DNA of 64,000 nucleotides, taken from the IMG/VR virus record IMGVR_UViG_3300026519_000009, positions 1 through 64,000 of that record; one strand, written 5' to 3'. Positions 8,367-59,370 of this stretch are shown here, in pieces (within the stretch, counting starts at the first letter, position 1; the number at the start of each line of letters is the position of its first letter). Both the position numbers and the translations under genes were made by a program. Origin of the DNA: a virus. The notes beneath the pieces were generated by a model that worked only from the letters and a program-made list of their open reading frames with translations, searched no databases and was not told the origin of the DNA.

Positions 8367-8401
8367 ATAACTATTCCTATATAACTGTATATTCTATTTA
8401 T

Positions 8402-8829
8402 CTAAAATGCAGAAATACCACCGCCAAATTCAGCGAGCTGAATTTGGCGGTGGATTCGCATAATGATCACACATTATGCTGTCGGCAACTGTTGGCAACC
8501 TTCCGTGTTCCGTTGGTAGCCCATAGACACCTCCTACGATCGTTTCGCTTCACAAGTGGAGAATGTTCATCGCTGCATTGACAACGCGCTCATGTATTGT
8601 TCCACGCTTGATTGACAACAAACGCCTTTTGAATCAATACTTTGCGTTTGTTGTCATTGACACGAAACTTTAATGTCTTCATGACTTTATTGTCGGAATG
8701 AATGCACTTTTTCACATAAACGGTGTACCATAGTTAAATGTCAGATCAAGAACTAAATTCACTATGGTGCCTATCCAACCACTTCCAAATCAGCAAGATG
8801 AATTTGGAAGTGGTATTCCGGTAACTTGG
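8402..8829 (-). mobile_element. Decayed tnpB element with a left end on both sides, between divergent genes
   Basis: Reverse-complement similarity to 3063-3723; hairpins at about 8418-8453 and 8779-8813; both ends abut ATAAATA motifs. Confidence 0.85.
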
Positions 8830-8836
8830 ATAAATA
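8830..8836 (+). promoter_or_regulatory. Putative T4-like late promoter (ATAAATA)
   Basis: Motif recurs upstream of structural genes (12554, 23699, 26064, 45831 and several minus-strand sites); resembles T4 TATAAATA. Confidence 0.6.
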
Positions 8837-8859
8837 GAATAAATTAATGGATATTTAAT

Positions 8860-9240
8860 ATGGCGCACCAAACTAATCTTTACCGAGGCTACTCATCATT
8901 TAACTTTCAAAGCGATAAAACCTTTGCATTGCGCGATGTTGAACTCGTTCAGACGGAATTACTGGCCCATATATTTACCACCAAGGGGTCACGGGTCATG
9001 ATGCCAAATTTTGGCAGCAATATCCCAACAATGGCATTTGAACCATTAGACGAAATGATAGTTGATGAAGTTTATACCGAATTATTAAATATTTTTGACT
9101 ATGATCCAAGAGTTGAAGTGGTTTCATTGCGTGTTATCCCGGACTTCGACAATAATTCAATAGAGGCACGTGCTAGATTACGATATATCGAATTAGATAC
9201 TGTCGATGACTTCGACCTAAATATAGACTTTGAAAATTAA
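8860..9240 (+). CDS. Baseplate wedge subunit, GPW/gp25 family
   Basis: IFTTKGSRVMMPNFGSNIP..AFEPLD...YDPRV motif. Confidence 0.9.
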   Translation: MAHQTNLYRGYSSFNFQSDKTFALRDVELVQTELLAHIFTTKGSRVMMPNFGSNIPTMAFEPLDEMIVDEVYTELLNIFDYDPRVEVVSLRVIPDFDNNSIEARARLRYIELDTVDDFDLNIDFEN

Positions 9241-9267
9241 ATAAAACATACAACATGAGAAATTATA

Positions 9268-12200
9268 ATGGTTAATGAAATTTCAAGAGCTGAAGCATGG
9301 ACACGCGCACATGAGGTGTTCACACGTGTAAATTTTAATGCATTTGACTATAATACAATTAAGGAAAGCCTACTGGACTATATGAAGCTATATTTTCCAG
9401 AAGACTTTAATTCGTATATCGAATCATCCGAATTTATTGCAATTCTTGAACTATTTGCATATGTTGGTGAATTATTAGCATACCGGTTGGATTTAAACGC
9501 ACATGAAAACTTCATTACCACGGCTGAACGCAAAGAATCAATTTTACGATTAGCTAAATTAATATCATATAGTGCTTCGCGTAATGTTCCAGCGCGGGGG
9601 TTAGTAAAAATAACATCTATACAAACAACTGAACAGATTTTTGACGCACAAGGTAGGAACTTAGCTAATACAAATTTAATATGGAATGACTTAAACAACC
9701 CAGACTGGAAAGAACAGTTTCTTACGGTAATGAATCGTGTATTAGAACAACCATTCGGTACGGTTACACCAAATGAGCGGGTACAAATAGAAGATGTATT
9801 GTTTGAATTATACACATGGAATAATCAGCCATTATCTGGAAATGGGATAACCACGTTTAAGTATTCAATTCCTGCTGCGGGCACCACATTTCCACTTGAA
9901 TTAGTACCGGTGGCACTTACCGCAGCATCACCAATAGAAAAGCGACCTGAACGAAATGGGAAATTCTCATTATTATATGGTGCTGATGGTCTTGGTGATG
10001 GTTCCGATACAACCGGGTTTTTCCTGTACACCAAACAAGGAACATTGCAAGTTCGTGAAGCTAATTTCGACGGTCTCACCACAAACCAAACATTTGATGT
10101 AGCTACGAATAATATTAATGAAACTGACGTTTGGTTAAACAATGTAGACCCTAATACCCGTGAAATCATTAGCACAAATCCCTTTGCCCAACAATTACCT
10201 CACCTTGATAGTAATACCGGTCGGTTTGGAGAATGGTCAACCGTTAATGCGTCAAATACACAAAATATCTTCTTTAATATTGTCAATAAACGCCAACAGT
10301 TTGAAATTGAAACATTAGATAACGACCAAATTAGATTAATATTCGGGGATGGTGAATTTTCGGATATTCCAAACGGTGCTTTTGATATTTGGTATAGAAT
10401 TTCTGCAAATAGTAATAGTGCAATTCCACAAACGTCTGCGAATGAGCTCACCGCAAGCTTTACGTATTTAGATATTAGCAACACAACACAAACGTTTACC
10501 TTTACCTTTGCATTAATCAATTCGCTACAGAATGCATCGGTCTCCGAAGATATTGAACATATTAGACGTGTTGCGCCTTCGGTGTACTACACACAGGATA
10601 GAATGGTAAATGGTAGGGACTATAACTCGTTTATGCTACAAGACCCATCTATATTAAAATTACGTGCGGTAAACCGAACATTTTCGGGTGACTCAAAATA
10701 TATAGCGTGGCATGACCCAAAAGAATATTACGAAGATGTAAAAATATTCGGGGAGGATATGGCACTGTATTGGATAAATAATGTTGTGGAGAATGGTGGA
10801 CTAATTACCTCCAATACCGCGCTTACTTCATCTGAAGTTATTTCAAACCTAATAGAACCATTACTATGTAGTTCTGACTTATACAATATAATGATTGGTT
10901 TATTTCAAAACGCATCAATGCAATTAGTGGAACATTGTACGTTTACACCAGCCGAAGTGTCAGTAATTCAATCTGCTTTAGATTTTGCTGCCACATCTTC
11001 CAATCCACAAGTAGACTTATATTTTTCGGCTACTGGTGATGAATGGACGGTGGGCGAAAGCATATCATACACCGATTCTGTATTTTTGATAAGAATAGAA
11101 GCAATTTTCACCGCTAGTAGCTTATCTGGATGGACTATACGTTGGGCGACCAGTAGAATGAATGTTCAAAGTCAAACTACTAGATTTAGAAATACAAATA
11201 CAACCTCACGAATCGTCAACTTTGATACACTAAATTCAAATGATGATAATATTTTAATACTTAATGCAAACGCAAATGGCAGTGAAAATGCGTTATTGGG
11301 TTCAAATAAAAAATATAATGTATTAGGTCAGGAACTCGTAGAACAAAATCTACCAAATGCTGGATTACCGGATGATAATCGTCTTTCAGTGATACCGACC
11401 GATACGGATGATGATGGTATTCCGAATGACATAGAACAAACGGATTTATTAAACGCAATATACACCACCGTCATAGCAGTTGCTGGTACGGGAATATTAT
11501 TTGACTTTCAATCACTATCCAATCCTGCACCCGGCACACAGCTTCCTAATGCAAATGCAATGTATTTTATGGAAAATACACATTTGGAAAGTGTTTCGGT
11601 TAAGGTTAATAATACAACCATTACTACGTGGGTACCCGGTCCAGTTATTCCAGGGACAAACGAAATTCATTCAATAATAATCACATCACCGCTTTCCGTA
11701 AGCGATATTCTCGAAATATCAACTAAACGATTTGTTTATTTTCATCGCCCAACCATTACCGATCAATGGGTACCTGTTGTCGATAATAGCGCAAATCGTG
11801 CGTTATGGTTTGCAGATTCATTGAACCTTTTATATAAACGCGAAGAAGGACGATTTCCGCTAAACTTCGCATGGTTCTATACAACGCCTAGGTTTCATCT
11901 CGTAGACCCCGCCGCTAGTAACATAATTGATATGTTTATAATCACAACGTCATATTATCAAGAACTTACGCGATATCTAAATAATAGCACTACTATTATG
12001 CCAACATTGCCAACACCACTTGACTTACGAACGTCATATGCTGGATTGTTACAAAATGCAATGATTTCGGACACAGTTATTTTACATCCTGGAACATTTA
12101 AAATACTATTCGGCGAGCGTGCAATACCTGAACTTCGTGGTGTATTTAAAGTTCTACGACCGGATAATACATCATTGACTGATAATGAGGTCAAAGTCAG

Positions 12201-12465
12201 AATAGTAGATACCATTAAACGGTTTTTTAATATAACGGATTGGAATTTTGGAAGCACGTTTTACTTAACAGAATTACTAGCCGCCATACATGTTGATTTA
12301 GGAGCGGAGATTCGATCAATTGTATTAGTCCCCACATTCACGACAAATCAATTTGGCGACTTGTTTCAAGTTCAAGCACGCGAAGATGAAATATTTATAG
12401 CAGATATTAATACAACCGATGTTGATATCATACAATCGTTCACCGCTGAAAATATAAGACAATAA
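9268..12465 (+). CDS. Baseplate wedge protein, gp6/baseplate-J-like
   Basis: FDYNTIKESL...ENFITTAERKESILRLAKLISY; FGDGEF; QDRMVNGRDY; directly follows gp25. Confidence 0.85.
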   Translation: MVNEISRAEAWTRAHEVFTRVNFNAFDYNTIKESLLDYMKLYFPEDFNSYIESSEFIAILELFAYVGELLAYRLDLNAHENFITTAERKESILRLAKLISYSASRNVPARGLVKITSIQTTEQIFDAQGRNLANTNLIWNDLNNPDWKEQFLTVMNRVLEQPFGTVTPNERVQIEDVLFELYTWNNQPLSGNGITTFKYSIPAAGTTFPLELVPVALTAASPIEKRPERNGKFSLLYGADGLGDGSDTTGFFLYTKQGTLQVREANFDGLTTNQTFDVATNNINETDVWLNNVDPNTREIISTNPFAQQLPHLDSNTGRFGEWSTVNASNTQNIFFNIVNKRQQFEIETLDNDQIRLIFGDGEFSDIPNGAFDIWYRISANSNSAIPQTSANELTASFTYLDISNTTQTFTFTFALINSLQNASVSEDIEHIRRVAPSVYYTQDRMVNGRDYNSFMLQDPSILKLRAVNRTFSGDSKYIAWHDPKEYYEDVKIFGEDMALYWINNVVENGGLITSNTALTSSEVISNLIEPLLCSSDLYNIMIGLFQNASMQLVEHCTFTPAEVSVIQSALDFAATSSNPQVDLYFSATGDEWTVGESISYTDSVFLIRIEAIFTASSLSGWTIRWATSRMNVQSQTTRFRNTNTTSRIVNFDTLNSNDDNILILNANANGSENALLGSNKKYNVLGQELVEQNLPNAGLPDDNRLSVIPTDTDDDGIPNDIEQTDLLNAIYTTVIAVAGTGILFDFQSLSNPAPGTQLPNANAMYFMENTHLESVSVKVNNTTITTWVPGPVIPGTNEIHSIIITSPLSVSDILEISTKRFVYFHRPTITDQWVPVVDNSANRALWFADSLNLLYKREEGRFPLNFAWFYTTPRFHLVDPAASNIIDMFIITTSYYQELTRYLNNSTTIMPTLPTPLDLRTSYAGLLQNAMISDTVILHPGTFKILFGERAIPELRGVFKVLRPDNTSLTDNEVKVRIVDTIKRFFNITDWNFGSTFYLTELLAAIHVDLGAEIRSIVLVPTFTTNQFGDLFQVQAREDEIFIADINTTDVDIIQSFTAENIRQ

Positions 12466-12485
12466 TTCAAAACTTTGAATTTTAT

Positions 12486-12553
12486 CTAAATTAACGAAAT
12501 GTCACTTCCAAATTCCGCTGGGCGGCCAACGGTGAGGGGATTTAGCAAATCGG
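12486..12553. mobile_element. Degenerate palindromic mini-element with two left ends
   Basis: TTTAT|CTAAATT...CACTTCCAAATT...GCAAATCGG|ATAAATA. Confidence 0.55.
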
Positions 12554-12586
12554 ATAAATAATTAAATAATTGGAGAGCAACTTACC

Positions 12587-15500
12587 GTGCCGAGTGATAA
12601 TAAAACAGATTATATGATAAAATTTATGGATTTACTGGAATTATTACCAGAGCCATATCAATCTGATGTTAATATAAGTGTAGTTAATAACCTTTTTAAT
12701 CGTTTTTTAACGAAAAAAGAGACGGTGCGCGTCTCTGGTTATATTGGTGTTGGTAATCAAAATGCTCTTACCCCTAGACGAATTAAAGAAAATGATATTC
12801 ATCGTCAAGCGTTTCAACTTCAACCAATATTATATGACAAAATTGGTACAATTGAACACATGGCATCGTGGAAGGATATTCAAAATGAAACGACACGACT
12901 TGGAATAAACATTGACGATTTTGCAACGTGGGGCGCAAGTGAAACCTTTAATTGGGTGCCACCAATTGATATCAATAAGATTATTAACTATCGTGACTAT
13001 TATTGGGTCGATACCGTAGGTAGTCAACCACAATATATTACCGTTCGTAGTCGCTGCGCAGTAGCGACAAGTCTGGCAAACTTTTGGGGGCAAATAATAA
13101 CACAATACGGTGAATTATTTCCAATAACTGAAATACGTGAGATTGACGACACCAGTGCATTACAAACATATTCTATTGTGTCGATTAATACAGGCACTGG
13201 TAATGTTGTTATTACAGGTGATGCCACAACCGATATTGTTAATGGTAATTTTTTTAACATATCATCAACATTAAACAACAATGGTACCTACCAAGTAAAT
13301 ATGGCACCGGTATATGATGGTGTTACAAACACTACAACATTAGACGTAAGTGGTTTAATTGCGGATGAAAATATTGGATTAGTAACACTTAGACGATATG
13401 ATAAGCTGGTGATTGGTCCAAATGACAATACACCTACCGGTGATTATAGTACGCTATTTGAAGAAGGGTTTGTTTTTTTTATGAGGCAACCAACAAACCC
13501 AGAACAAAATAATCAATTTGTAACGGTAATTAGTTCAACGTTTGACCCAAACAATGCAAACACAATAGTTAAGATCGGATTAACAACTACCGATAATACT
13601 GTGGCAGCTAGTAGTATGGTTTCATTGGTTGAACAAAATGCAATATATGTCGATGCCCGAAATTGTCAATGTGGCGTTGGGGTAGATGGCTGGGATGATG
13701 GTGTTTTATGGGACGATAACCCATCTAATCCAATATGGGGGGATGCGGAAGGTGCATTAGGGTCACCCATCCCTGATGGAATTTCGGATTATCAAAATTT
13801 AATTAATCGCATATCAAATGCCGGTCCACCTGCTTTGCCGGGAATTCAAAATGAATTATGGTTTGATACCATTGGTGATATATTATATCAATATGATACG
13901 GTAGGCGGTTGGAAGATCATTTGGAACTCTTTTAGTACATTACTATCCGATGTAACCGGACAAGTATTATGGGATTTATCGCAAAATTGCGACGAAGCCA
14001 TTCGTATACCAGCCATGGATCAATGGATTCTTGAAAATAAATGGGTTCATAAAAATGATATAACTAACTTTGCTTCGGTACGTAGAGCCACCCAACCTAT
14101 TATAGAATATGACTGGGACTTAGAGTTAAACGAATGGACATTTACCAAATATCGCTGGGGATACCGTAGTGAAACAAATGGTACCTTCATAGAAACAACA
14201 GAACTTCCACCTTTTATAGAATTAGAAGAAATAGTATGGTGGGAACTGGATACTACTGATATTACGAATAGTACTGTAATCCTTGACTCGCGTTATGGTG
14301 ATCAAAGTGCCTGTTTCGCAGCAAACACCCGATTTCATATTGGTAACACTATTATTAATGAAGTTGACTATGTTGAATATAAAAAACCGTCAATTGCCAG
14401 TATGTTCCCATATAGAACATATGTGAAATTTAAAACACCAATCGTAGGGTCAACCGGTGACTTTAGTATAGGAACCCCTAATAGTTTGTCATTAACACCA
14501 GTTGTAACAAAACAAGGTGATCTTTGGGGAGGATACGGTGTTCATTGGATATTTTTAGGCGCAAATGATACAGTACCTGTTCCACACCAAACGGATAATC
14601 CTGATGTTGCAATTCTGGATACTGCGTTGGTGTCTACTATTGGAAGTCCTCCTATATATGAAACACGCGAATCATTATATGCGCAAGAATTTCAATTATT
14701 AGCACCATCTACAACAATATTGGAATTAAGTAATATTGTTCCTACTAATGATACTAGATCATTACAAAGAAAGGCATTGTATAATTTCGATGATATTCGT
14801 GTTTATTTAAGCGATATCACAAATGGAAATATTGTTCGTCAATTCGGAACGTATGAAGAAATAGGAGAAGTTGTTGTCGATATTATCGGAATCGATGACG
14901 TATTAAACGAATTTATAATAGGTGAAGACTATTCAACATTATATACAGCAGGGGATACAATACGATTACAGGAAAATAATACGGTTGGTACACAAGACTA
15001 TACGGTTGCGGGCGGTGCGTCAAATCCTAATCGTATTCGCGTAACAACCGCGCTTGCCGGAATATCCATAACCGGACAAATAGTGAATATATCGAATCCT
15101 GTTACTACCGAATTATATCCAAATATCGATTTCGTAAATACACGAAATATTTCAATTTATGTTCGAGGGATACGCTTCTTAACCCCTGTGTTAGGCGGAC
15201 AAAATGTTACAATAGAAGTCGGTGAAGCATCAATAAATGAATTAGACCGTCATGCACTTAGAGTGCGCACTATTGAGGATGAAGCACAATATAATATTGT
15301 TGGTGACTTAGCTATTAGTACAATAAAATATAGAAAAGTTGAACAAGTAAAAACAAGTGACAATCAATATCCTTTATTTGATATTTTTACAGCAACGGGC
15401 GAAGCTGCAAATCGTGCCAATCCTATATTTGGATATAAAACGTCAAACACCGCTCCTATTAATCAAACAGGACTACGAATAGTTTTCGATGCAAGCACGC

Positions 15501-23632: not shown

Positions 23633-23698
23633 CCAAATAGCCGAAATGCCACCACCAATTCAGCAAGCCGAATTGGTGGTGGCATTTCGGAAAATTAG
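23633..23698. mobile_element. Palindromic mini-element with two left ends
   Basis: CCGAAATGCCACCACCAATT...AATTGGTGGTGGCATTTCGG, then AAAATTAG|ATAAATA. Confidence 0.8.
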
Positions 23699-23740
23699 AT
23701 AAATATAATATGCAACATATAAAATAACCGGATATTCTAA

Positions 23741-26003: not shown

Positions 26004-26096
26004 TTTTAAAAATGTTTAAGTAAGTCAATTCAAAAACACTTTTTATGGATTAAAAAAATCACATAAATATAATGAAATATAGGAGCGTTCGCCATA

Positions 26097-30362: not shown

Positions 30363-31384
30363 CCGTTGTTAAAATAGTAACAAAATGTAACAAGTGTTTT
30401 TTGTTACTGATTATTCACAATGTCAACGAGCTTGCCAAGATGATCTTTGGACTGACGGCTCTCTTTTGTGCGTTTTTGGCCTCCTTGCAACGCATGGCGA
30501 CCATACTCTTTTAAATTATTTGCTGCATTAAAATCACGATCCATATTAACACCACAATCACAACTATACAACCGTTCCGACAATGTTAAATCGTTTTTTA
30601 ATTGTCCGCAGCCACTACATACCGCGATTGCTTCCTTTCTTCTTTCGTGCCATTTCCGTTGCAACCGTGCCAACCGATTAAGATTGGATTTAAGGCATTG
30701 ATTAGCTGGGAAAATTGTCCCATTGCTAATCACTGCCAATTCTTTAATTCCTAAATCAACGCCACCAATTGCTTCGCGGTTATGATCCTGTGGATCATAT
30801 TCGTTGGTTTCAACCAAGATCGATGCGAAGTATTTTCCGGCGTGTTTACTAATAGTAACCTGCTTGGTCTGCCCGGCAAATCGTAATCGTTGCCGCATTT
30901 TTATCTTGGTCTTTAACTTTTCAATCCGTAGTTCTCGGCCAGCCACATCAAACTTTTCCGCTTCGCGCAAGGCAAATGAGTCACGAACACCCCGTCGTTT
31001 GAATCGGGAAAAGCCCGGTGTCTGTCCCTTCTTCACCCGACGAAAGAAATGACTAAAGGCATTATCCAAATCATCAATCGCATTGCGCGTAACACGCGAT
31101 GACACCTCATTGTACCATGGAAACGTAGGTCTAATAACTCTCATGAAATGCTGATAACCAGCAGCTTTCGACCACTTATTCTCTGGATGACTAAAATGCG
31201 CCAGCAATTGATTATAGCAATGCCGCCGATGACCACAGGCCATATCCAAATATTGGATATGGCCTGCTGTAGGTCGCAATTCAATTTTGTGTGCTAGTAA
31301 CATAGTAGTATTTATCTACAAAATGTAACACGACTTGTTACATTTTGTCAAGTTTAGTTACATTTTAATCAACTGTTGGCAGCC
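30363..31384 (-). mobile_element. IS607-like non-autonomous tnpB element inserted at a GG in the nrdB leader
   Basis: Subterminal AAAATGTAAC repeats at both ends; GG at both junctions; removal restores AATAATAAGG-TAAATCATA-ATG. Confidence 0.7.
30404..31303 (-). pseudogene. tnpB: tnpB (third family) with deletion of the RuvC-II region
   Basis: HKIELRPT N-terminus; GVDLGIKELA; jumps directly to CSGCG...DRDFNAANN. Confidence 0.85.
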
Positions 31385-37711: not shown

Positions 37712-37772
37712 CCAAGTTGCCGGAATACTACTTCCAAATTCAACAAGCTGTATTTGGAAGTAGTCGCCTCAC
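37712..37772 (+). mobile_element. Palindromic mini-element copy
   Basis: ATTAT|CCAAGTTGCCGGAATACTACTTCCAAA...TTTGGAAGTAG-TCGCCTCAC with a compensatory stem change. Confidence 0.85.
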
Positions 37773-38871: not shown

Positions 38872-38911
38872 TTAGTATCCATTGATAATCATACATTGTA
38901 TTGTTATTTAT

Positions 38912-39357
38912 CCAATTTGCCGGAATACCACTTCCAAATTCAGCTTGGTGAATTTGGAAGTGGATGGATAGGCACCATTAGGACGATCTTGCACTTGTAT
39001 ATATTGCTTTAATATTTCAATTGGGGCAATAATTAAGTGAATTTAGTTCTTGAATTGATATTTAACTATGGTACACTGTTTATATGAAAAGAGCAATCAT
39101 TCCCGACAAAATAAAGCCATGAAGACTTTAAAAATTCGCGTCAATGACATCAAGCACACGGTTGCCAACAGTATTGAACCAAAGGGGGGGGTTGCGGTTG
39201 CCAACAGTCAATCGGGTGTTGATGGACACAAAACATAAATGATCAACAAAAATAGTAAGTGAAAACGAATTAGTGAAAACACCGAAGACATAATGAGCGA
39301 CCATTGTGCGAATCCACGTTCAAGCGCAGATCGCTGATTTGGTGGTGGTCGCTTCAA
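38912..39357 (+). mobile_element. Decayed IS200/IS605 tnpB element with both hairpins
   Basis: TTTAT|CCAATTTGCC; left hairpin; tnpB promoter and 5' remnant; right hairpin; TCGCTTCAA supplies the stop of the next gene. Confidence 0.88.
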
Positions 39358-39932: not shown

Positions 39933-39944
39933 AGTGGTATTTAT

Positions 39945-43685: not shown

Positions 43686-43721
43686 GGTATCCTCGTGTTT
43701 ATTGATTATATTATTATTTAT

Positions 43722-43865
43722 CCAAGTTGCTGAAATACCATTTCCAAATCAACAAGCTGAATTTGGAAATGGATGGATAAGAAGAATTTTGGTTGGATTC
43801 CAATTGAAGCTACCATCACCAAATCGTCTCGCTCATTTGGTGATGGTCGCCAACAGTAGCTTCAA
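43722..43865 (+). mobile_element. Two-hairpin mini-element (left end, short spacer, right end)
   Basis: TTTAT|CCAAGTTGC; hairpin CCATTTCC/GGAAATGG; second hairpin; ends CTTCAA. Confidence 0.85.
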
Positions 43866-45685: not shown

Positions 45686-45723
45686 ATGTACAACATCCTA
45701 TTAACTATTATCTTATTATTTAT

Positions 45724-47838: not shown

Positions 47839-47873
47839 AATAGTGATCGTTCCAATATATTATAGATATTTAT

Positions 47874-50873: not shown

Positions 50874-51337
50874 TGACCGGTGGGCATTAAAATATGATTT
50901 GTTAATACAATTGCAGTATCAATATCCGATACTACAAATGGACATGCTTCAAGCAACATTGGGTGTTCATGTATATTTCCATGCGGTTCCATAATCAATA
51001 CGATTGGAATATTTGCTTGTTTGGCCCACGCAATTTCCATTACAGTACCAATACTAACAGTAGTGGCGTTCAGTAAATTTACTAGAAGTAAGTCAGAACG
51101 ATGAACATCAAAATTGTCACGTGTATATATACCACGCTGGGTAGATAATGGCCAATCATTATTGTCATAAGAACCAACTATTTTGTCAAGCGTACCTAAG
51201 TATTCCTTACCACGTAATGGGGACACGCCGCTGATATGCGAATCTAAATTTTCAATAGCATACTGTCGCCAGTCAATAGATTCGTTGAACCCGAGTCCTG
51301 AAATGGGCCCGGCCAAGTATACAAAAAACGATTTCAT
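50870..51337 (-). CDS. Nucleoside 2-deoxyribosyltransferase-like protein
   Basis: VYLAGP, DVHRSD, SIGTVMEIAWA. Confidence 0.85.
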   Translation of the reverse strand: MKSFFVYLAGPISGLGFNESIDWRQYAIENLDSHISGVSPLRGKEYLGTLDKIVGSYDNNDWPLSTQRGIYTRDNFDVHRSDLLLVNLLNATTVSIGTVMEIAWAKQANIPIVLIMEPHGNIHEHPMLLEACPFVVSDIDTAIVLTNHILMPTGH

Positions 51338-51592
51338 TTTTGCCTCCAGTAATGATATTATATTAAAGCGTTATCCATCAATATCAGGAAGTTCAGCATT
51401 CTGTTTCACCAATTCGTCAAACACAATAGAAATCCGATTAGATAATGTAGTTTCCAAGGCGGATAATGACGTAAGTTCTGATAGTCGAACGGTTGCTTCA
51501 ATTAAGCTATCCATGATATATTCTCTCTAATATTATTGAAACATGACAATATCATGCGATAACGAATAAATCAAGCATTTTATCCAATTTGA

Positions 51593-51766
51593 CTAAATTT
51601 CGGATGGCTTTCCAAATATTCGTTCAACTGCATGTAAGAACTCCTTTTCGGGGTCTAATGCCCGTGCGAGCATCTCTTCTTGTTCGGGTGTTAATGGTTG
51701 GGTTTCGGTAAATCCCATGTCGGCTAAAACGGTGATAATCGCTGAATCTTGGTTTTCTGTCTTCAT
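51593..51766 (-). CDS. Small acidic protein (57 aa, not in ORF track)
   Basis: MKTENQDSAII...ERIFGKPSEI; GGATAAATA 5 nt upstream. Confidence 0.45.
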   Translation of the reverse strand: MKTENQDSAIITVLADMGFTETQPLTPEQEEMLARALDPEKEFLHAVERIFGKPSEI

Positions 51767-51778
51767 GTGTATATTTAT

Positions 51779-51842
51779 CCAAGTTGTCGGAATACCACCA
51801 AATTAGCAAGCTGAATTTTGAAGTGGTATTCTGGCAACTTGG
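51779..51842. mobile_element. Mini-element with two left ends
   Basis: TTTAT|CCAAGTTGTCGGAATACCAC...GTGGTATTCTGGCAACTTGG|ATAAA. Confidence 0.85.
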
Positions 51843-51844
51843 AT

Positions 51845-51882
51845 AAAAAAAGCAGTGATATACCGAAAAATATCACTGCTTT
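51845..51882 (-). terminator. Intrinsic terminator
   Basis: AAAAAAGCAGTGATAT...ATATCACTGCTTT. Confidence 0.7.
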
Positions 51883-51906
51883 GGTTTAAACAACCACCGG
51901 TTGTCG

Positions 51907-52173
51907 CTAGTCGGCGGAGGGAGAATCTTCTGCGTCAGCAGAAGATTCTCCCTCCGCACTAAGCTCTGCACGTACTTTATTGATAATTTGTTGCGAAAGT
52001 GTTTCTTTTGCCGCAATATATCGAGTCAATTCATCCCGTACCACCACTTCCTGCCGTTGCCAATCATTATACATTTCGACCAATCCTTGAATTTCTTCAC
52101 TCAGACTATCAACCGCATATGGCTTTTCATCAATTGTAAGTACCTTAATATCCACTACTTTTTGCATCTTCAA
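51907..52173 (-). CDS. Small acidic hypothetical protein
   Basis: GGAG RBS; terminator downstream. Confidence 0.6.
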   Translation of the reverse strand: MKMQKVVDIKVLTIDEKPYAVDSLSEEIQGLVEMYNDWQRQEVVVRDELTRYIAAKETLSQQIINKVRAELSAEGESSADAEDSPSAD

Positions 52174-52254
52174 TCTCCTAATATTATAATTATATATTCA
52201 ACGCTTTATTTTACCACTGTATTGCTACAAATATCAATCTTTTTTTTTCATTTA

Positions 52255-53574
52255 TTACACATTCGGTAACGTGTTAAACATATGGTCGGCATCCGACAAA
52301 TCAACACCAGGCGGTGCATCGGATGGTTTTTTCTTCTTAAAAATAAGTTGATCGGAGGCGGCTGTATCATCATCCACTATCCTTAAATATTTATTATCCC
52401 ATTTTAAATGAATATGATCACCAACACCATCGCTATTTCGTGTTTTTTGTAAAATAAATATAATTTTTTCCATTGCACGCATCTCATCCGTCATTATTAT
52501 TGAGAAATAAGTATCAGCGACCTGTATTTTACTAAGACCACCAGCAATTTGACTATGATTATGTGATGGTGCTTCAATTGCACTACGATTAAGTTGGGAA
52601 GCGGTTGCAATAAACATATCGTAATCTATACCAATTTGTCGTAACTGTTCGGAACATAATTTATCTTTTTGAAACACATTATCAGCGGATATTGCTTCAT
52701 TTGCCCCCATATTATCAAGATAATCAAGAACGATCATATCCGGTATTCGTTTGTTTCTTAACTCAAATTCTTTTAAATATGCACGAATATCATTGGCGCT
52801 AGTTTCGGTTGGCATCTGTACGATATCTAACGCCCCGATGTTTTTACCGGCCTTTGTTACCGTTTTGGTTATTTCATCTACATGTTCTTTCCAAACTTTC
52901 CTAGAAATACCGGTGTACATTGTGTCAAATCTACTGCCTATTACATCTTCTGATAATTCAAGTGATATGTATAAAACGTCAAGTCCTCTATTTACAAAAT
53001 TTAATGCTAAATTGGCCAAAGTAATAGACTTACCGCCACCGGAATTCGCGGAAACTAATAATAATTCTTTTCGTGAAATACCACCAAATAATGCATCATC
53101 CAGTTTAGACCATCCGGTCGGTGATGTCTGCGTGCCTATTAAATTTCGTTGTAGTCGTTCTTCTACGCTTGAAAAATATGATAATCCAAGATTTTTTGAC
53201 AGTGATATTTGTGACGCGGCTAACATTACGGCAGCTGCTTCTGCATGTTTCGCATCGTTAGTAATTAGTTCAACGGCAATAATTACTGCTTCTTCCATCG
53301 CTCGCTTTTGGCAAAACTCTTCTATTTCATCTGCACAATATGAAACTTGATCCGTTGTTATTTCATGCATTCGCAACAACATGCCAGTTTCCGCTTCAAT
53401 TTGTTTTGTATTAGGTGTAGTGGAATACTCATTAAAGTATTTAACTATAAACATAATGACCCTTTGATATTCAGGATCAAAGTAAGTTGCTTTGATTATC
53501 CCTTGACACATAGCATATGTGTCCGGTGATGAAATCAGCAATTCTATTAAGAATTTTTGTTTAGTATTATCCAT
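52255..53574 (-). CDS. Replicative DnaB-like helicase (T4 gp41-type)
   Basis: SANSGGGKS Walker A, ISLELSE, VLDYLD, TASQLNR, KTRN. Confidence 0.92.
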   Translation of the reverse strand: MDNTKQKFLIELLISSPDTYAMCQGIIKATYFDPEYQRVIMFIVKYFNEYSTTPNTKQIEAETGMLLRMHEITTDQVSYCADEIEEFCQKRAMEEAVIIAVELITNDAKHAEAAAVMLAASQISLSKNLGLSYFSSVEERLQRNLIGTQTSPTGWSKLDDALFGGISRKELLLVSANSGGGKSITLANLALNFVNRGLDVLYISLELSEDVIGSRFDTMYTGISRKVWKEHVDEITKTVTKAGKNIGALDIVQMPTETSANDIRAYLKEFELRNKRIPDMIVLDYLDNMGANEAISADNVFQKDKLCSEQLRQIGIDYDMFIATASQLNRSAIEAPSHNHSQIAGGLSKIQVADTYFSIIMTDEMRAMEKIIFILQKTRNSDGVGDHIHLKWDNKYLRIVDDDTAASDQLIFKKKKPSDAPPGVDLSDADHMFNTLPNV

Positions 53575-53591
53575 TTTTTATTATTTTTTAT

Positions 53592-53650
53592 CCAAGTTGC
53601 TGGAATACCACTTCCAAATCGGCGATCTGATTTGAAACCGACCACTTCAA
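53592..53650 (+). mobile_element. Palindromic mini-element copy
   Basis: TTTAT|CCAAGTTGCTGGAATACCACTTCCAAATC...CACTTCAA. Confidence 0.8.
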
Positions 53651-53653
53651 TTT

Positions 53654-54661
53654 CTAAATATTTCGTATAGCGGGATATATAGTTTTTATAGCTGCCTCAT
53701 CGATGAAAAATTCACCATTATCGTAAACCAGTGCAAATTGATTCATTGTTGGGGTTATATCAGTAACATCTACATATATACCGGTATCCTTATCTACCGT
53801 AGCAAAGGGTGGATTTGACATAAGCAACAACACCTCATTTTTCTCTATACTTCTGGTATTCGGCGGACTACCCGAACATTCGGTTATGGTATCATATGTA
53901 AACGTAGAACCATTACCAACAATATCATCTTGTATTGATTGATATATCCCTTGATAGCTCCGCACCGTATATATTTTACCCTTAATGACCACACTATCAA
54001 AATCACTCCATGGTGATACCGAATTAAGCAAGGATTCGCTTACATTTGAATACAGGTGCTGTTCCGTATTTCCCGTTGCGGTAGTAAAGGATACCATTAT
54101 TCCGACATTTGCGCAAGTGCCTATGGTAGGGACTCGCGTGGCGATAGTGATTTCGCCACCAATGGAAATTTGTCGGCGCGACCGTATGGAGGCTGATTCT
54201 ATAGTAGTGGAAGATAATATATCGGGGGGGGACTGTCTAGCCACAAGCTGTGCAACCCCAGACCATTGACGATCAAATACCAACATAATATTATTTGAAT
54301 CGACTATTATGACATCTGTCGGTGATATTTCAACCATATTATTAATATCCGTTTCTGTTGGTATATTAACAAATACCGAAATTGCGGGCGTGGTACCAAG
54401 ATTATGTGGAATAGTCCATGTGGAGCGTGCAATAACTTGTGTATGATCATATAAAACACGACGGGGAAGCCACTCGTCCAGTCCAAATACGGGGGTTGAT
54501 ACACCAGCTTGGGTAAAGTCGGACATTAAATCAATTTGATACAATGAACCACGACAACCATGCGTAATAGTACAACGATTTATATTTTCAATACCATCGA
54601 TGATACGAACGTATTCCTTTTCCCGTTTACACACATCGCATCTATATAAAACAACTGCCAT
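53654..54661 (-). CDS. Probable virion protein
   Basis: N-terminal Cys motif (CDVC...CTITHGC); WTIPHNLG module; GSPP. Confidence 0.6.
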   Translation of the reverse strand: MAVVLYRCDVCKREKEYVRIIDGIENINRCTITHGCRGSLYQIDLMSDFTQAGVSTPVFGLDEWLPRRVLYDHTQVIARSTWTIPHNLGTTPAISVFVNIPTETDINNMVEISPTDVIIVDSNNIMLVFDRQWSGVAQLVARQSPPDILSSTTIESASIRSRRQISIGGEITIATRVPTIGTCANVGIMVSFTTATGNTEQHLYSNVSESLLNSVSPWSDFDSVVIKGKIYTVRSYQGIYQSIQDDIVGNGSTFTYDTITECSGSPPNTRSIEKNEVLLLMSNPPFATVDKDTGIYVDVTDITPTMNQFALVYDNGEFFIDEAAIKTIYPAIRNI

Positions 54662-54672
54662 ATTTCCCCCAA

Positions 54673-54975
54673 TTACGCCAATACAATATCGGACACTTGC
54701 TGTAAATAAGCATCAATCATTGGCTGTGGAACTGTTGTTACTTCTGACATAATTGCGGTCTTTAACATTTTTACCGTAGTTTCCGTAGTAAACTCTGGAT
54801 TATTTGCACTTACCATAAATGGTAACATGCCCAATGATACAGAACCATCTGGCGACTGCTGCATAACCAATACCCTAGCCCTTTCAAGCATATAGTAAGT
54901 ACTATTATCTTCTACGAGAGTTGCAATTACTTCTTCACCGCTGATTGTTTTAAGTGCCAATACTGTTGTTGTCAT
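54673..54975 (-). CDS. Small phage protein, Sm-like fold candidate
   Basis: LKTISGEEVIATL...YLQQVSDI pattern common in T4-like phages. Confidence 0.55.
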   Translation of the reverse strand: MTTTVLALKTISGEEVIATLVEDNSTYYMLERARVLVMQQSPDGSVSLGMLPFMVSANNPEFTTETTVKMLKTAIMSEVTTVPQPMIDAYLQQVSDIVLA

Positions 54976-55016
54976 CCTTATCTCCTATTTATTATTATAA
55001 ACATATAATATCAATT

Positions 55017-55583
55017 CTAACTATTGGTTGTCAAGTGCGCATAGTTACTAATCGTGGTGACACGGAGCGCATAGTAATATGGTATCCCATATAATATTAT
55101 TTCAGCACCGCTGGATATTCCTTCGGATAGCTGTTCGGTTGAATAATTAAACCGCAATAAATCTTCAAATATCATCGTTCCGCTTGTTTCACCAAGCTTA
55201 TTGAATATTGATTCAAATATTGGTTCGTAACAGTTGGTTGAATCGTTAACCGCCTTGCTGTACATATATCGAAACCCATTGGGTGGAAACACATAAAACA
55301 ACTCATTTTCATTTTCATAAATATCTTCCACCCCACCAATGGCAAATACTGCTCGTTCTCTCAGGTTATACAGTTGTTCCTTAAATACTGAATTAAAAAC
55401 CTTACCGAATTTCGTCGTATTATTGTGCTTACGGACTTTGATTTTTTGAAAGTCATCGTGTGTATTGGGTAAGTACTTGAACAATGGCATACCATTTGCT
55501 TCCAATAAAAACTGGGAACAATTGGTTTTGATTCGACGAATGTTGCTAATTTCGTTTATTTGTAATAATGGTTGTACGCGCAT
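55017..55583 (-). CDS. Hypothetical protein (possible internal head protein)
   Basis: LQINE N-terminus; GGATAAATA 6 nt upstream. Confidence 0.55.
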   Translation of the reverse strand: MRVQPLLQINEISNIRRIKTNCSQFLLEANGMPLFKYLPNTHDDFQKIKVRKHNNTTKFGKVFNSVFKEQLYNLRERAVFAIGGVEDIYENENELFYVFPPNGFRYMYSKAVNDSTNCYEPIFESIFNKLGETSGTMIFEDLLRFNYSTEQLSEGISSGAEIILYGIPYYYALRVTTISNYAHLTTNS

Positions 55584-55596
55584 AAAACCTATTTAT

Positions 55597-55663
55597 CCAA
55601 GTTGCAGCAATACCACTTCCGATTTCAGCTTGCCGATTTGGAAATGGTATTGCTACAATTTGG
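55597..55663. mobile_element. Mini-element with two left ends
   Basis: TTTAT|CCAAGTTGCAGCAATACCA...TGGTATTGCTACAATTTGG. Confidence 0.8.
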
Positions 55664-55704
55664 GTAACTAACAATAGTCAATCAAACACTAATCCAGACA
55701 ACGA

Positions 55705-56166
55705 TCACTTCCAACGCAACTCACCACCAATATTTTTGGGCATCCCATCTAAAGATTTAAGATGATTATTCATACACAAGAACGTTCCTCCCACTGAGGT
55801 CGGCGCACCGTCTAATGTTATTAATTCATTATCATAGCAAAAAAAACTACCATTAACCTCATATGGTGAATATTCTAAGCTGGATAATAAGTTAAATGAA
55901 CAATTAAAACCACCTTCTACTTCGTGCGGGCTACCTTTTAATGATGTCAATTTGTTACCTGAGCAGTTAAAATCACCATACACCGTTCGAAATTGCACTG
56001 GGATTTCGGTCAAATAACGATGACAAATGTTTACGTTACCATTTACGATAACACTACCGTTATCGCAAATAATATAGTTTTTTATTTTCATATTTTCAAG
56101 CCAGCGCATAATATCGCACACTGGCTTGAAATCCGTTCCGGAGGTATCAGGCATGTTCATCATCAT
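55705..56166 (-). CDS. LRR-like solenoid repeat protein
   Basis: 22-aa repeats GDFNCSGNKLTSLKGSPHEV. Confidence 0.8.
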   Translation of the reverse strand: MMMNMPDTSGTDFKPVCDIMRWLENMKIKNYIICDNGSVIVNGNVNICHRYLTEIPVQFRTVYGDFNCSGNKLTSLKGSPHEVEGGFNCSFNLLSSLEYSPYEVNGSFFCYDNELITLDGAPTSVGGTFLCMNNHLKSLDGMPKNIGGELRWK

Positions 56167-57177: not shown

Positions 57178-57519
57178 TTGAAGTGACCACCATCAAATCA
57201 GCGAGCTGTGTTTGGTGGTGGATTCGCACAACGGTCGCCCATTGTGTTTTCTGCATTTCCACAGACCCCTGCTAGTAGCGCTTGGTTTCCCAAGCTGAGA
57301 ATGTTCGTTGCTACATTTACATTGCAATCATGCATTGTTTCACACCCGGAGCATGTACATTCTCTTATTCCAAGACCTGAACTACCTTACTGATAATAAC
57401 ATAGTTAAATGTCAAGTCAAGAATTAAATTCACTTAATCATTGTGTGTTTAATATGTTGCCTGTCCAACCACCATCAAATCAGCACGATGATTTGATGGT
57501 GGTTGGACAGGCAACTTGG
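57178..57519 (-). mobile_element. Deleted IS200/IS605 element retaining promoter region, tnpB 3' end and both hairpins
   Basis: Reverse-complement similarity to 3063-3723; TTGAA at 57178; AACTTGG|ATAAA at 57519. Confidence 0.88.
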
Positions 57520-57880
57520 ATAAATATTCAATAACAGCCTCTTCGTCTATTGTTAGTGATCCACTTGCATTGGCGCGGCGCAACGTAGTTTCAAAGGTCA
57601 TTATCATTTCTTTTGAGTTTATATATTCTAATATGATTTCACACGCGGCGCGTGTGAAATCATATTGTGAATTGTCCTCATCATGTTTGTAGTCAATTGC
57701 CAACGCCGCCATAAACATGATATTTTGTACCACTGGCACCGTGGTTGGCATTAAAGTGAACCATCCAGGATCATTTTTAATAAAATTGGTGTATAAAATT
57801 TTATCATCATCCGTTAATGGCACGCAGCTTGACATTTGTTTAACAAATCGTTCTTCATATGTTTTTTGCAATGCAGTCAT
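57449..57880 (-). CDS. Hypothetical protein with element-derived C-terminal extension
   Basis: Reads through the left end (EYL|SKLP...); excision gives EYLF*. Confidence 0.6.
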   Translation of the reverse strand: MTALQKTYEERFVKQMSSCVPLTDDDKILYTNFIKNDPGWFTLMPTTVPVVQNIMFMAALAIDYKHDEDNSQYDFTRAACEIILEYINSKEMIMTFETTLRRANASGSLTIDEEAVIEYLSKLPVQPPSNHRADLMVVGQATY

Positions 57881-57999: not shown

Positions 58000-58059
58000 C
58001 CAAGTTGCCGAAATACCACTACCAAATCAGCAAGCTGAATTTGGAAATGGTCGCTTCAA
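58000..58059 (+). mobile_element. Palindromic mini-element copy (near consensus)
   Basis: ATTAT|CCAAGTTGCCGAAATACCAC...TGGTCGCTTCAA. Confidence 0.88.
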
Positions 58060-58069
58060 TATGTCAATA

Positions 58070-58846
58070 TTAATGTTTTGGTTGCCAACGTTCTAAATAC
58101 TGCCCGATATCGAATAACACCGAATTTACATTGTGAAATAACCAACTGTTGTTATTGGGTTGGCGTGACCCATGTTGGTCTAATGCACCGAACACGGCTG
58201 TGCTTTGTTCAGCATCCCATATATACCATTGCACTATTTCTAGGTTCCGTTCGGTTATTATTTTATGTAGTTCAGTCTGACCGGTTTTATGAATAAAGAC
58301 CCCTATTATATTGGGCGAACTAGATTTCATTCTATATAAAATGAATATGGGCGTGATTTCCTTAGCCGCGTTGATTTTAGATTGCACGGTTTTGCCCAAA
58401 AAACCGGGCCAACCACCATTTTTCGTAAAATCACGATAGCCACGAATTGGATTTCTTGGTATCCCTTCGGGTATGTTACCCTTGTCAAATTCTATTTTGA
58501 ATTCTTCGATTGTTTTTAGGCCAAGTTTATGTATTAAGGCCACCGCATCCCAATATGGCATTCGCTTGGCGCGTGTAACCGCGTGTGGCGCGTCCGCTGA
58601 GAATATGTTGTTGGTATCTAAAAACGTATTCCAGTTATCCCATTCTATATAAACCTCACTTGGATTTGCAGGCATTCCACCCGGTTTATAGTTACGTATC
58701 CATGTCCGGTATTGGCGGTATGATTTAATGCCTACCCGTCTTGCATATTGCGCAGCAAGGTCATATGGCATCCACCTCCAGTCTTTTGGTTTGCTATTTT
58801 CCAATGCTTTGGGAAGATATGTGCGTGATTTGCGTTTTTTAACCAT
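58070..58846 (-). CDS. Protein with two 'phage-integrase repeat'-like DNA-binding units
   Basis: MPY..A...R..GIKS...PANP..VY..W..W..FL repeated twice. Confidence 0.6.
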   Translation of the reverse strand: MVKKRKSRTYLPKALENSKPKDWRWMPYDLAAQYARRVGIKSYRQYRTWIRNYKPGGMPANPSEVYIEWDNWNTFLDTNNIFSADAPHAVTRAKRMPYWDAVALIHKLGLKTIEEFKIEFDKGNIPEGIPRNPIRGYRDFTKNGGWPGFLGKTVQSKINAAKEITPIFILYRMKSSSPNIIGVFIHKTGQTELHKIITERNLEIVQWYIWDAEQSTAVFGALDQHGSRQPNNNSWLFHNVNSVLFDIGQYLERWQPKH

Positions 58847-58857
58847 ATAATTACCAA

Positions 58858-59358
58858 CTAATTGTTGTGTGAATTAATGAACAGTCCGCCAATAATTGTG
58901 GTTGCGCGATGTGATTGTGGTAGTATATTAAATGAACAGTCAAAATCACCATCAATTTCTTGTGGTGATCCTGTCAACGATCTTAGGTTATTAGCATATA
59001 CATGAAAAAACTTTCCGACTTCGGATGGACCGCCAACTAATGAAGATATCATATTCATAGAACAATCAAAGCCACCAGCAACTTCCTTCGGCGCACCTAA
59101 TAATGAGTTCAGTTCGTTAAATGAACAATCAAAATCGCCACCGACTTCACGCGGTGAACCTTTTAGTGTGGTCAAGCTATTATTTGAGCAATTAAAATTA
59201 CCATAAACAATTCGGAACTGTACTGGTATTTCGACTAATCCTTTAAAATCTAAATAAACATCACCTTTCACCGTTACCGTACTTGTATCATTAATAGTAT
59301 AATTTATAATACCCATTTCATCAAGCCATCTTATAATTTCTTTTTTATTAGTCATCAT
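58858..59358 (-). CDS. LRR-like solenoid repeat protein, paralog of 55705-56166
   Basis: EIPVQFR.VYG.FNCS.N.LT.LKGSP.EV. Confidence 0.8.
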   Translation of the reverse strand: MMTNKKEIIRWLDEMGIINYTINDTSTVTVKGDVYLDFKGLVEIPVQFRIVYGNFNCSNNSLTTLKGSPREVGGDFDCSFNELNSLLGAPKEVAGGFDCSMNMISSLVGGPSEVGKFFHVYANNLRSLTGSPQEIDGDFDCSFNILPQSHRATTIIGGLFINSHNN

Positions 59359-59370
59359 ATTGATATTTAT

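Follow-up and report, generated by a model that had tools for sequence, protein, structure and literature searches.

In the jumbo-phage record IMGVR_UViG_3300026519_000009 (76.6 kb), positions 1 to 64,000 of which form the window analysed here, copies of a mobile hairpin element directly adjoin the upstream edge of approximately two thirds of the boxes that appear to serve as late promoters, and the boxes themselves are unchanged. The most probable explanation is that an insertion sequence targeting TTAT lands flush against the late box, where its insertions are harmless and are retained, such that the box edge acts as a safe harbour. The new aspect of this finding is the link between the ATAAATA motif and IS200/IS605 target choice; the literature searched treats each of these separately, and the link is absent there.

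Identity of the repeated hairpin element

Sequence comparison places the repeated element in the IS200/IS605 family, as an IS with divergent tnpA (Y1) and tnpB together with deletion derivatives that shrink to single-hairpin miniature copies of ~60 nt. Searches with nhmmer recovered ~33 copies in 76.6 kb (~1 per 2.3 kb), and the window holds TnpB fragments, ends closing in TCAA and ~30 single-hairpin miniature copies. The Y1 transposase itself (PF01797, E 1.5e-41) is encoded on a related phage contig, G003 (49996-50361, minus strand), where its 3' end continues through the left-end hairpin up to the junction; this is the same left end as that of the copies described here, and tnpB-homologous sequence follows the transposase inside the same IS. 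No transposase gene was found in the 76.6 kb of this record, which represent ~24% of a genome. All tnpB copies in the record are fragments, matching Pfam PF07282 with E values of 1e-21 to 1e-24 (matches at 2678-2872, 3390-3605, 57300-57368 and 59757-59972), and a 140-nt repeat composed of the tnpB 3' end, the right-end hairpin and TTCAA is 92-96% identical between contigs.

The hairpins are subterminal and imperfect, with stems of 15-27 bp and a recurrent one-base bulge, and terminal inverted repeats are absent. Paired changes in the stems preserve pairing (CCACTTCC/GGAAGTGG, CCACCACC/GGTGGTGG and CCATCACC/GGTGATGG). Complete copies start after TTAT and close in TCAA without target duplication, and in 11 of them the right end reads GG TCGCTTCAA up to the junction. 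TTAT is present at 24 junctions in this record and at most junctions in G003 and another contig, G001, and the right flanks do not resemble it; the element integrates 3' of TTAT, which stays at the left flank. Outside the hairpins, the left flank measures 16 nt and the right flank 9 nt, lengths similar to those of IS608. The tetranucleotide AATA lies just 5' of the left-end hairpin foot, overlapped by GAAT, and complements TTAT position by position. The target guide of IS608 occupies the position 5' of the left-end hairpin foot (PMC3201880, PMC5934647, which also provide the reference values), and AATA may similarly guide this element by pairing with TTAT.

The ATAAATA box and its junctions with the element

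Several lines of sequence evidence identify the lone ATAAATA box as the putative late promoter of this jumbo-phage clade. Across 24 related loci, the density of ATAAATA is raised 35-fold in the 60 nt preceding ORF starts, and 7-mers of the same composition score 0.6-11.5 in the same test. The gp25-like baseplate gene is preceded by the box in ~50 of 59 relatives, and the element is absent from all of them; the flanks there vary around an invariant box. The box also precedes homologues of a 240-aa virion gene (38149-38871 here) in ~13 of 15 relatives. Genes preceded by the box in this record include the gp25-like, giant, fibre-like, virion-protein, terminase, adaptor and tail-tube genes, and no perfect box was found before dnaB, nrdA, nrdB or tmk. 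ATAAATA has been described together with a gp55-like late sigma factor for the relatives CBB and GAP32 (PMC5259590). A gp55-like gene (homologue of CBB_244) is present in the loci of at least 25 relatives; none is found in this record, G001 or G003, each of them a fragment of a genome. The earlier note had equated the motif with the lone box of T4-like late promoters, TATAAATA. The lone box stands, but its conserved form is ATAAATA, and TATAAATA itself is not enriched (9 found vs 15.5 expected). By comparison, TATTTATC occurs 18 times in the window vs 8.1 expected, a count reached in 0 of 100 shuffles.

All 13 junctions listed in that note read TATTTAT followed by the element, and the opposite side of each box carries the left-end flank CCAAGTTGCCGGAATA, intact or decayed. 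The leftmost box (792..798, minus strand), 27 nt before the ATG of gene 513-764, is abutted by an element copy at 799-867. A defective composite IS copy (8402..8829, minus; detected by BLAST to the G003 element and by nhmmer), with hairpins at 8418-8453 and 8779-8813 and remnants of tnpA and tnpB inside, lies between two divergent boxes: 8395..8401 (minus) before gene 7329-8366, and 8830..8836 (plus) before the gp25-like baseplate gene 8860-9240 and wedge gene 9268-12465. A decayed copy (12481..12553, minus) precedes the box at 12554..12560 (plus) and the giant ORF of 3672-3681 aa (12587/12614-23632), and a palindromic single-hairpin copy (23633..23698, minus) precedes the box at 23699..23705 (plus) and gene 23741-25759.

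The remaining listed boxes are on the minus strand. Box 38905..38911, before the virion structural gene 38149-38871, is joined by a 446-nt defective IS (38912..39357, plus) whose left end keeps the final ~50 nt of tnpA; internal remnants follow, and its right end closes in TCAA. Box 39938..39944, 5 nt before the ATG of gene 39354-39932, is abutted by a left-end flank remnant (39945-39990), and box 43715..43721, before the tail-fibre-like gene 41721-43685, by a 144-nt element with two hairpins whose right end closes in TCAA (43722..43865, plus). A 79-nt element (45724-45802) sits between box 45717..45723, which reads TATTTAT+T and precedes gene 45023-45685, and a free divergent box at 45821-45827 (plus). 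Box 47867..47873 precedes the NUDIX gene 47407-47838 and is abutted by an element at 47874-47947; palindromic copies at 51779-51842 and 55597-55663 abut boxes 51772..51778 (5 nt before the ATG of ORF 51593-51766) and 55590..55596 (6 nt before the ATG of gene 55017-55583). The far end of the copy at 51779-51842 reads ATAAAAAAA and lies within the T tract of a terminator-like hairpin. Finally, box 59364..59370, 5 nt before the ATG of gene 58858-59358, is followed by a 718-nt defective IS (59371..60088, plus) that retains the left end, a TnpB C-terminal fragment (59730-60113, Pfam Cas12f1-like_TNB), a guide-RNA-scaffold-like 3' region, the right-end hairpin and TCAA.

Three further occupied sites lie at 57520 in the window and at 70119 and 74895 in the remainder of the record. 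At 57520-57526, a 342-nt defective IS with a tnpB 3' remnant (57178..57519, minus) sits at a chance TATTTAT formed by the last codons of an ORF rather than by a promoter; the insertion falls 5 nt ahead of the stop codon that originally closed ORF 57449-57880 and adds 22 codons to this ORF. In 15 of the 16 occupied boxes a gene start is 5-36 nt away (box 12554 is 26 nt from the GTG at 12587), and the claim that the listed boxes point into the adjacent gene holds for 12 of 13. Five boxes are only 5-6 nt from the called ATG, an unusual spacing for a promoter.

The invariant part of the junction is TTAT, and 8 further TTAT junctions (7 elements) are found in the record away from boxes. A 661-nt defective IS (3063..3723, plus) with a TnpB C-terminal fragment (3153-3701) sits at the near-box AATTTAT, and a canonical miniature copy of ~60 nt (37712..37766, plus) sits at a non-box TTAT (TTATTAT); similar miniature copies occur at 47350-47410, 53592-53636 and 58000-58059. 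In reciprocal fashion, the motif does occur without the element at the three sites previously noted, here located at 26063..26069 (plus; before gene 26097-27284), 31309..31315 (minus) and 45821 (formerly given as 45831), and also at 1489, 31419, 54986 and 61199. The box at 31309 lies in front of a separate TnpB-like gene (30404-31303), 5 nt from its ATG, and is preceded by a different, unrelated hairpin (31318-31348).

Occupied and empty orthologous sites are both seen among relatives, as expected of a mobile element. The relative L050 (88-91% identity) is element-free at the sites orthologous to 8830, 12554 and 55590, lacking for example the copy at 12481..12553, and it retains the box at all three, which indicates that the box predates the insertion and lies outside the element. 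Homology between this record and L050 stops at the box edge, and another relative, G002, is empty at 71718 and filled at 74902. The proposal that the element inserts right at the upstream side of a box that was already there, without damaging it, is thus borne out by the three empty sites, and likewise by element-free boxes in dozens of distant relatives.

Explanations for the accumulation at the box edge

The element is distributed very unevenly among its potential targets. Intergenic TATTTAT sites are occupied in 16 of 24-26 cases (62-67%) and other intergenic TTAT sites in 8 of 132-209 (3-6%), with an odds ratio of 31-40 and Fisher p values of 1e-10 to 1e-12. In the occupancy test that the earlier note proposed, equal occupancy thus clearly fails as a description of these data (odds ratios of 31-56 over all comparisons). 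Of 65 TTAT sites with no gene start within 40 nt, only 2 are occupied, a figure that a pure harmless-site account fits poorly. G003 likewise weighs against the safe harbour, with only 2 of ~12 boxes occupied and 6 insertions at non-box sites.

The safe harbour remains the probable reading and would follow from the base sequence of the box. Its complement, TATTTAT, ends in TTAT, the target of the element, so that integration into the template strand puts the element flush with the upstream edge of the box without altering any box base. If this promoter, like T4-type late promoters, requires nothing upstream of the box, insertions there would be harmless and would persist and accumulate. The strong hairpin, which the transposase requires, would come to lie 5' of the late transcription unit only incidentally. 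The observed bias exceeds that of a simple tolerance filter, so that a preference during insertion, or some benefit, probably contributes as well.

Such a preference might take the form of directed targeting, in which the transposition machinery favours the whole TATTTAT, or the single-stranded DNA of a late promoter melted in its active state, above TTAT sites elsewhere; the enrichment would then reflect insertion bias rather than survival. This possibility is given roughly one chance in four. It is in keeping with the contrast between boxes (64% occupied) and TTAT sites remote from gene starts (3%), at which tolerance is expected too, with the hit at the perfect non-promoter 7-mer at 57520 and with the requirement of Y1 transposases for single-stranded targets (PMC3201880). 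However, at positions -5 to -7 the 18 non-box junctions on three contigs do not resemble the box in any graded way, the CGG beside the AATA guide is unable to pair with TAT, and non-box TTAT takes most insertions on G003. Extended pairing in IS608 arises only if engineered, and then involves sequence 3' of the hairpin and target bases past a 3-nt gap (PMC5934647). A benefit, which is somewhat less probable again, would mean that copies were co-opted and retained for a useful hairpin, as a barrier to read-through or a stabiliser of the upstream mRNA 3' end, or for a flank serving as an upstream promoter element. Native terminator hairpins directly upstream of a box, at 65608 in this record and in the relatives L053 and L089-L091, indicate that a hairpin followed by a box is a native layout in the clade. 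The left-end flank (12-16 nt) persists beside boxes after loss of the hairpin (G001 2999, 16731 and 21459; G003 47295; 39938 and 45717 here), and at 74902 it stays while a different hairpin replaces the canonical one; these observations, like the enrichment beyond a tolerance filter, favour co-option. Against it, no T tract was found beside the element hairpins on either strand, and none of them is among the 16 terminator-like sites in 36001-56000. Judged by sequence, they do not resemble intrinsic terminators, which combine a G+C-rich stem with a T tract. The loop orientation (CAAG or CTTG) also varies relative to the promoter, L050 manages without hairpins at three sites, and recognition by the transposase already accounts for the conservation of the stem.

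The box could conceivably be part of the repeat, as a promoter-plus-stem-loop cassette of the PeSL type that spreads by recombination with its own promoter. A conserved run does cross the junction in nearly all copies (CAACTTGG then ATAA...), and synteny between this record and L050 breaks exactly at two box-element junctions. Nevertheless the ATAA is the trace that the target of an IS200/IS605 element invariably leaves on the left side, and boxes occupy the same positions in wholly element-free relatives. The element also has a transposase, TnpB and ends in TCAA, and it joins TTAT outside promoters as well. Such a cassette is very improbable, and the empty orthologous sites contradict it. A combined scheme, in which integration is coupled to the late promoter through the whole box or its single-stranded active state and the hairpins are recruited as insulators or mRNA-end structures, seems unlikely as well. 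If coupled integration were true, phage-resident IS200/IS605 elements might generally be tuned to the promoter core of their host phage.

The safe-harbour reading would explain how a selfish element coexists with a densely packed virus genome: since the 4 nt that it targets form the outer border of promoters needing nothing upstream, dozens of copies could fit without damage to genes. The arrangement offers a testable natural system for target choice by single-strand transposases, for whether it truly makes no difference to a T4-type late promoter what lies upstream of it, and for whether phage transcription units recruit transposon hairpins. The copies further mark points prone to recombination, as in the two synteny breaks with L050, which bears on the reshuffling of jumbo-phage genomes.

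Comparison with known systems

The element resembles IS608 and IS605 (Helicobacter pylori) and ISDra2 in its Y1 transposase, its TnpB with a conserved 3' scaffold, its subterminal imperfect hairpins, the fixed tetranucleotide 5' of the insertion, the lack of target duplication and the short protein-less copies (PATEs, miniatures). It shares with IS608 the right end closing in TCAA and GAAT 5' of the hairpin, and with IS605 the divergent tnpA/tnpB. Unlike these three, its target is TTAT (guide AATA), the single hairpin of its smallest copies serves both ends, and it resides in a jumbo phage at ~1 copy per 2.3 kb with about two thirds of its junctions at a phage late box. The box itself resembles the gp55-dependent T4-type late promoter and the ATAAATA of CBB and GAP32 (PMC5259590) as a lone AT-rich box before virion genes with no -35 element, in a clade encoding a gp55-like sigma factor (none in this record's ~24% of the genome). 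It differs from the T4-type box in that the first T is not conserved (NATAAATA).

Repeated stem-loops with promoters between genes, and synteny breakpoints at these positions, are also features of the PeSLs of T4-type phages, which combine an early sigma-70-type promoter with a real terminator and are not transposons (PMC2839356, PMC4122927). In the present case the box is of the late type and pre-existing, and the stem-loop is a transposon end; PeSL identity is rejected on the late-type box without a -35 and the hairpins without a T tract. REP/BIME sequences, mobilised by RAYT, are similarly numerous short hairpins between genes, with an origin among Y1 transposases. Unlike the domesticated single-copy RAYT gene flanked by REPs, the transposase here is inside a complete IS with TnpB and proper ends, and REP/RAYT identity is rejected because the transposase is in an IS with a left end and tnpB-homologous sequence after it.

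Safe-harbour or promoter-proximal targeting is exemplified by Tn7 (at attTn7), bacterial group II introns (downstream of terminators) and Ty3 (at the starts of tRNA genes), all of which, like the present element, insert where host function is spared. To our knowledge no targeting protein is associated with this element. What distinguishes it from these systems is that its 4-nt target happens, or evolved, to be the edge of a promoter box.

The phage and its late promoter

The window, with a G+C content of 37%, makes up the first 64 kb of G000, an IMG/VR virus record of 76.6 kb to which CheckV assigns a completeness of 24%, and its gene content marks it as part of a jumbo myophage. More specifically, it encodes a gp6-like baseplate wedge protein, a gp25-like protein, a baseplate hub, a fibre-like protein, ribonucleotide reductase, thymidylate kinase, PRPP synthetase and a DnaB-like helicase, and the terminase, head-tail adaptor and tail-tube genes lie just past its end. 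Counterparts of the wedge protein occur in Xanthomonas phages XacN1 and Xoo-sp13 and Stenotrophomonas phage RAS14 at 46-48% identity and in Pseudomonas phage PA5oct at 36%, with Rak2-like coliphages among the remoter matches. The gene order of gp25-like protein, wedge and 10-kb giant protein is common to G000 and Pectobacterium phage CBB; the giant ORF (12587-23632, 3672-3681 aa) has no Pfam match and is equivalent in position to CBB_236, the 10-kb structural protein of CBB. The fibre-like protein has a 79%-identical homologue on a 29-kb contig, and the NUDIX protein a single distant match in metagenomes. A GenBank phage megablast with 10 kb of the window returned no match, and Rfam at the gathering threshold returned none across the window. 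An HNH homing-endonuclease-like gene of 543 aa (63261-64000 of the window; 261-1892 of L158, a stretch of the same record) has four paralogues, at 29-45% identity, in the related phage contig G003. The record is a metagenome assembly rich in 60-140-nt repeats, and its segment order could include assembly errors; the element junctions are short enough for single-read coverage and recur in independent contigs.

Several independent lines of evidence indicate that ATAAATA, read on the gene strand, is the late promoter of this clade, and from these we infer its activity and timing. The wedge protein was used to recover 59 related contigs, all of them free of the hairpin element (0/59); in about 50 of these, spanning 37-94% protein identity, the box lies 7-35 nt 5' of the gp25-like gene. 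The intergenic bases around it are unconserved and the base 5' of it is variable. The box is likewise kept before homologues of a 240-aa virion gene. In 24 related loci (530 kb), sense boxes are 35-fold denser within 60 nt 5' of ORF starts than elsewhere, against 0.6 to 11.5-fold for the 20 remaining permutations of its seven letters. The boxed genes of G000 are the classical late ones, and its helicase, reductase and kinase genes have no perfect box. The motif has been described before 35 structural genes of CBB and in phage GAP32, and a gp55-like late sigma factor was reported in the same study (PMC5259590). A homologue of that factor lies beside the 240-aa gene in at least 25 relatives and was not found in G000, G001 or G003, all of which are fragments. 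In the relatives' loci L159-L171 this sigma factor gene is the divergent neighbour of the 240-aa virion gene; in G000 (38905-39357) a 446-nt remnant of the insertion element occupies its position, with no sigma gene nearby. Of the promoter proposed in the earlier note, the form ATAAATA is the one conserved, and TATAAATA is not enriched.

Structure of the element

In every testable respect the element matches the IS200/IS605 family. Complete copies in G000, 59 to 718 nt long, start directly after their TTAT target, end in TCAA and show no target duplication. The foot of the left hairpin lies 16 nt from the junction, and TCAA ends 9 nt past the right foot. AATA, the four bases 5' of the foot, is the position-by-position complement of TTAT, and GAAT overlaps it. 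The stems vary among copies through paired changes, as would be expected of a structure that the transposase recognises. IMG/VR, scanned for exact 16- to 19-mers, yielded mostly chance matches, and the element was located only on the related phage contigs G001, G002 and G003.

A 140-nt repeat (3582-3723, 59950-60089, 57178-57322) comprises the 3' end of tnpB, a hairpin and TTCAA, and its translation includes the RuvC-III-type motif DRDINAATNIL. The Pfam domain Cas12f1-like_TNB matches ORFs 3153-3701 and 59730-60113, and the whole record holds five tnpB-derived stretches. No Y1 transposase was found in G000; G003, which also encodes tail sheath, portal, major head protein and topoisomerase, has one (PF01797, E 1.5e-41). 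Its tnpA frame traverses the left-end flank ("flank C") and the hairpin to end in ...CTT GGA TAA, and because this TAA is complementary to the TTAT target, the target doubles as the tnpA stop codon. The gene (about 15910-16400 of the G003 stretch L157) reads toward the downstream host gene. The extension of tnpA to the junction, together with the tnpB 3'-end repeat, gives the element an IS605 layout: TTAT, left end, outward tnpA, opposite-reading tnpB, scaffold region, right-end hairpin and TTCAA.

The tnpB-deleted copies (3582-3723, 59950-60089, 57178-57322 and 39273-39359) still carry about 140 nt from the 3' end of tnpB and the scaffold, a stretch that is 92-96% identical between contigs, far above neighbouring DNA, and may be stand-alone guide-RNA loci. 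An element is inserted 5 nt ahead of the original stop codon of ORF 57449-57880, and its left end encodes a 22-codon tail in place of the last residue. At G000 74902-74950 (L158 11902-11950) the left-end flank is conserved in both G000 and G002 (L049 4446-4466); G000 has there an unrelated hairpin, CATCTCTAAGTAA...TTACTTAGAGATG, and G002 the canonical CCACC stem. What looks like a second mobile element family is represented by a different TnpB-like gene (30404-31303, 299 aa; locus 30351-31348), with weak HTH_OrfB_IS605, OrfB_IS605 and TNB matches, its own hairpin at 31318-31348 and a box 5 nt 5' of its ATG. The 3' end of this gene and the 50 nt downstream recur at 91-93% identity on G001 (10176-10399) and G003 (15541-15760), in contexts otherwise unrelated.

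Occupied and empty boxes

The window contains 18 occurrences of TATTTATC against 8.1 expected. Every junction at which the earlier note had placed the element against a box was seen when each ATAAATA was printed in its own orientation; the order on the gene strand is a long hairpin, ...GGTATTCCGGCAACTTGG, the box and then the gene start. Further junctions lie at 57520 in the window and, past its end, at 70119 and 74895. About 33 hairpin copies in the 76.6 kb were detected with an nhmmer profile, and about half of them do not adjoin a full box.

With element DNA masked, 16 of the 24-26 intergenic TATTTAT sites of G000 are occupied, compared with 8 of 132-209 other intergenic TTAT sites (odds ratio 31-40, Fisher p 1e-10 to 1e-12), a result that holds at any ORF length cut-off for "intergenic". 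An element-free reconstruction of G000 gives an occupancy of 16 of 25 for boxes and of 2 of 65 for non-box TTAT sites more than 40 nt from any gene start, at which insertion should be nearly harmless (odds ratio 56). Occupancy of the boxes thus exceeds that of other intergenic TTAT sites, equality with which the earlier note had named as fatal to a link between element and promoter. The related contigs show a weaker bias in the same direction: the left-end flank precedes 4 of about 6 boxes in G001 and 2 of about 12 in G003, the latter against 6 insertions at other TTAT sites. A restriction of long copies to boxes was considered and rejected, as 5 of 6 copies of at least 140 nt and 10 of 16 short ones adjoin perfect boxes, a difference that is not significant and is contradicted by G003.

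L050, a relative from the same sample as G002, aligns with G000 at 88-91% identity in two stretches. At the orthologues of 8830, 12554 and 55590 it lacks the element and has each of the three boxes, followed by the same downstream sequence, and homology with G000 stops at the upstream edge of the box. Thus the box lies outside the element and is unaltered by insertion, as the earlier note had proposed. G002 lacks the miniature copy at 71718 and has a canonical left end at 74902; such filled and empty orthologous sites indicate rapid gain or loss of copies.

In L050 (1-6276) the homologues of 54832-55598 and 8829-13527 are linked by 860 nt that encode an IscA-like protein of 112 aa and another protein of 104 aa. 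Both synteny breaks, at 8829 and 55598, coincide exactly with box/element edges and reflect either recombination at those sites or an assembly artefact. At 31309, 39938, 51772, 55590 and 59364 the box lies 5-6 nt 5' of the called ATG with no Shine-Dalgarno sequence, a spacing repeated at the L050 empty site; these genes may have leaderless late mRNAs or miscalled start codons.

Cause of the bias and known systems

The geometry of integration is settled: because TTAT forms the last four bases of the box complement, an element integrating into the template strand comes to lie precisely against the upstream edge of the box. Such an insertion would leave a promoter without upstream requirements untouched, which would make the box edge a safe place, and retention at this safe harbour is favoured as the main cause of the bias. 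The low occupancy of distal TTAT sites (2/65) suggests that more than tolerance is at work. Directed targeting to the box, for example through a longer recognition sequence, is a live rival; yet positions -5 to -7 of the 18 non-box junctions bear no graded resemblance to the box, the bases beside the AATA guide are unable to pair with TAT, and extended target pairing in IS608 has only been engineered and used other positions (PMC5934647). Directed targeting predicts a TAT preference at -7 to -5 on NNNTTATNNN single-stranded targets, and retention predicts none.

Co-option, in which the hairpin would be beneficial next to a late promoter, is also a live rival. Native terminator hairpins lie directly 5' of the box at G000 65608 and in the relatives' loci L053 and L089-L091, and the left-end flank persists beside boxes after the hairpin has decayed. 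However, the element's own hairpins lack a T tract, and none of those in 36001-56000 is among the 16 terminator-like sites of that stretch; their loops are variable in orientation relative to the promoter, and the sister phage manages without any at three sites. The idea that a TnpA nick at the junction loads a clamp in the manner of the T4 late enhancer was rejected, since the nick would fall on the transcribed strand; the CBB study moreover reports no gp33 or gp45 homologues in the CBB clade, which also counts against this idea (PMC5259590).

Compared with known systems, the element spacing of 16 and 9 nt is close to that of IS608, in which the left hairpin foot is 19 nt downstream of TTAC and the right one 10 nt upstream of TCAA (PMC3201880), and GAAT, the right-end guide of IS608 (PMC5934647), is also found 5' of the element's hairpin foot. 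The box fits a T4-type late promoter, as already proposed for the clade. PeSL cassettes, with a stem-loop beside a promoter and synteny breaks, are alike only superficially, as the element/box pair fails their defining features. What is new in comparison with these systems is that copies are so dense in a phage (one per 2.3 kb), that they occur in a single-hairpin form and that late-promoter edges are nearly saturated with them.
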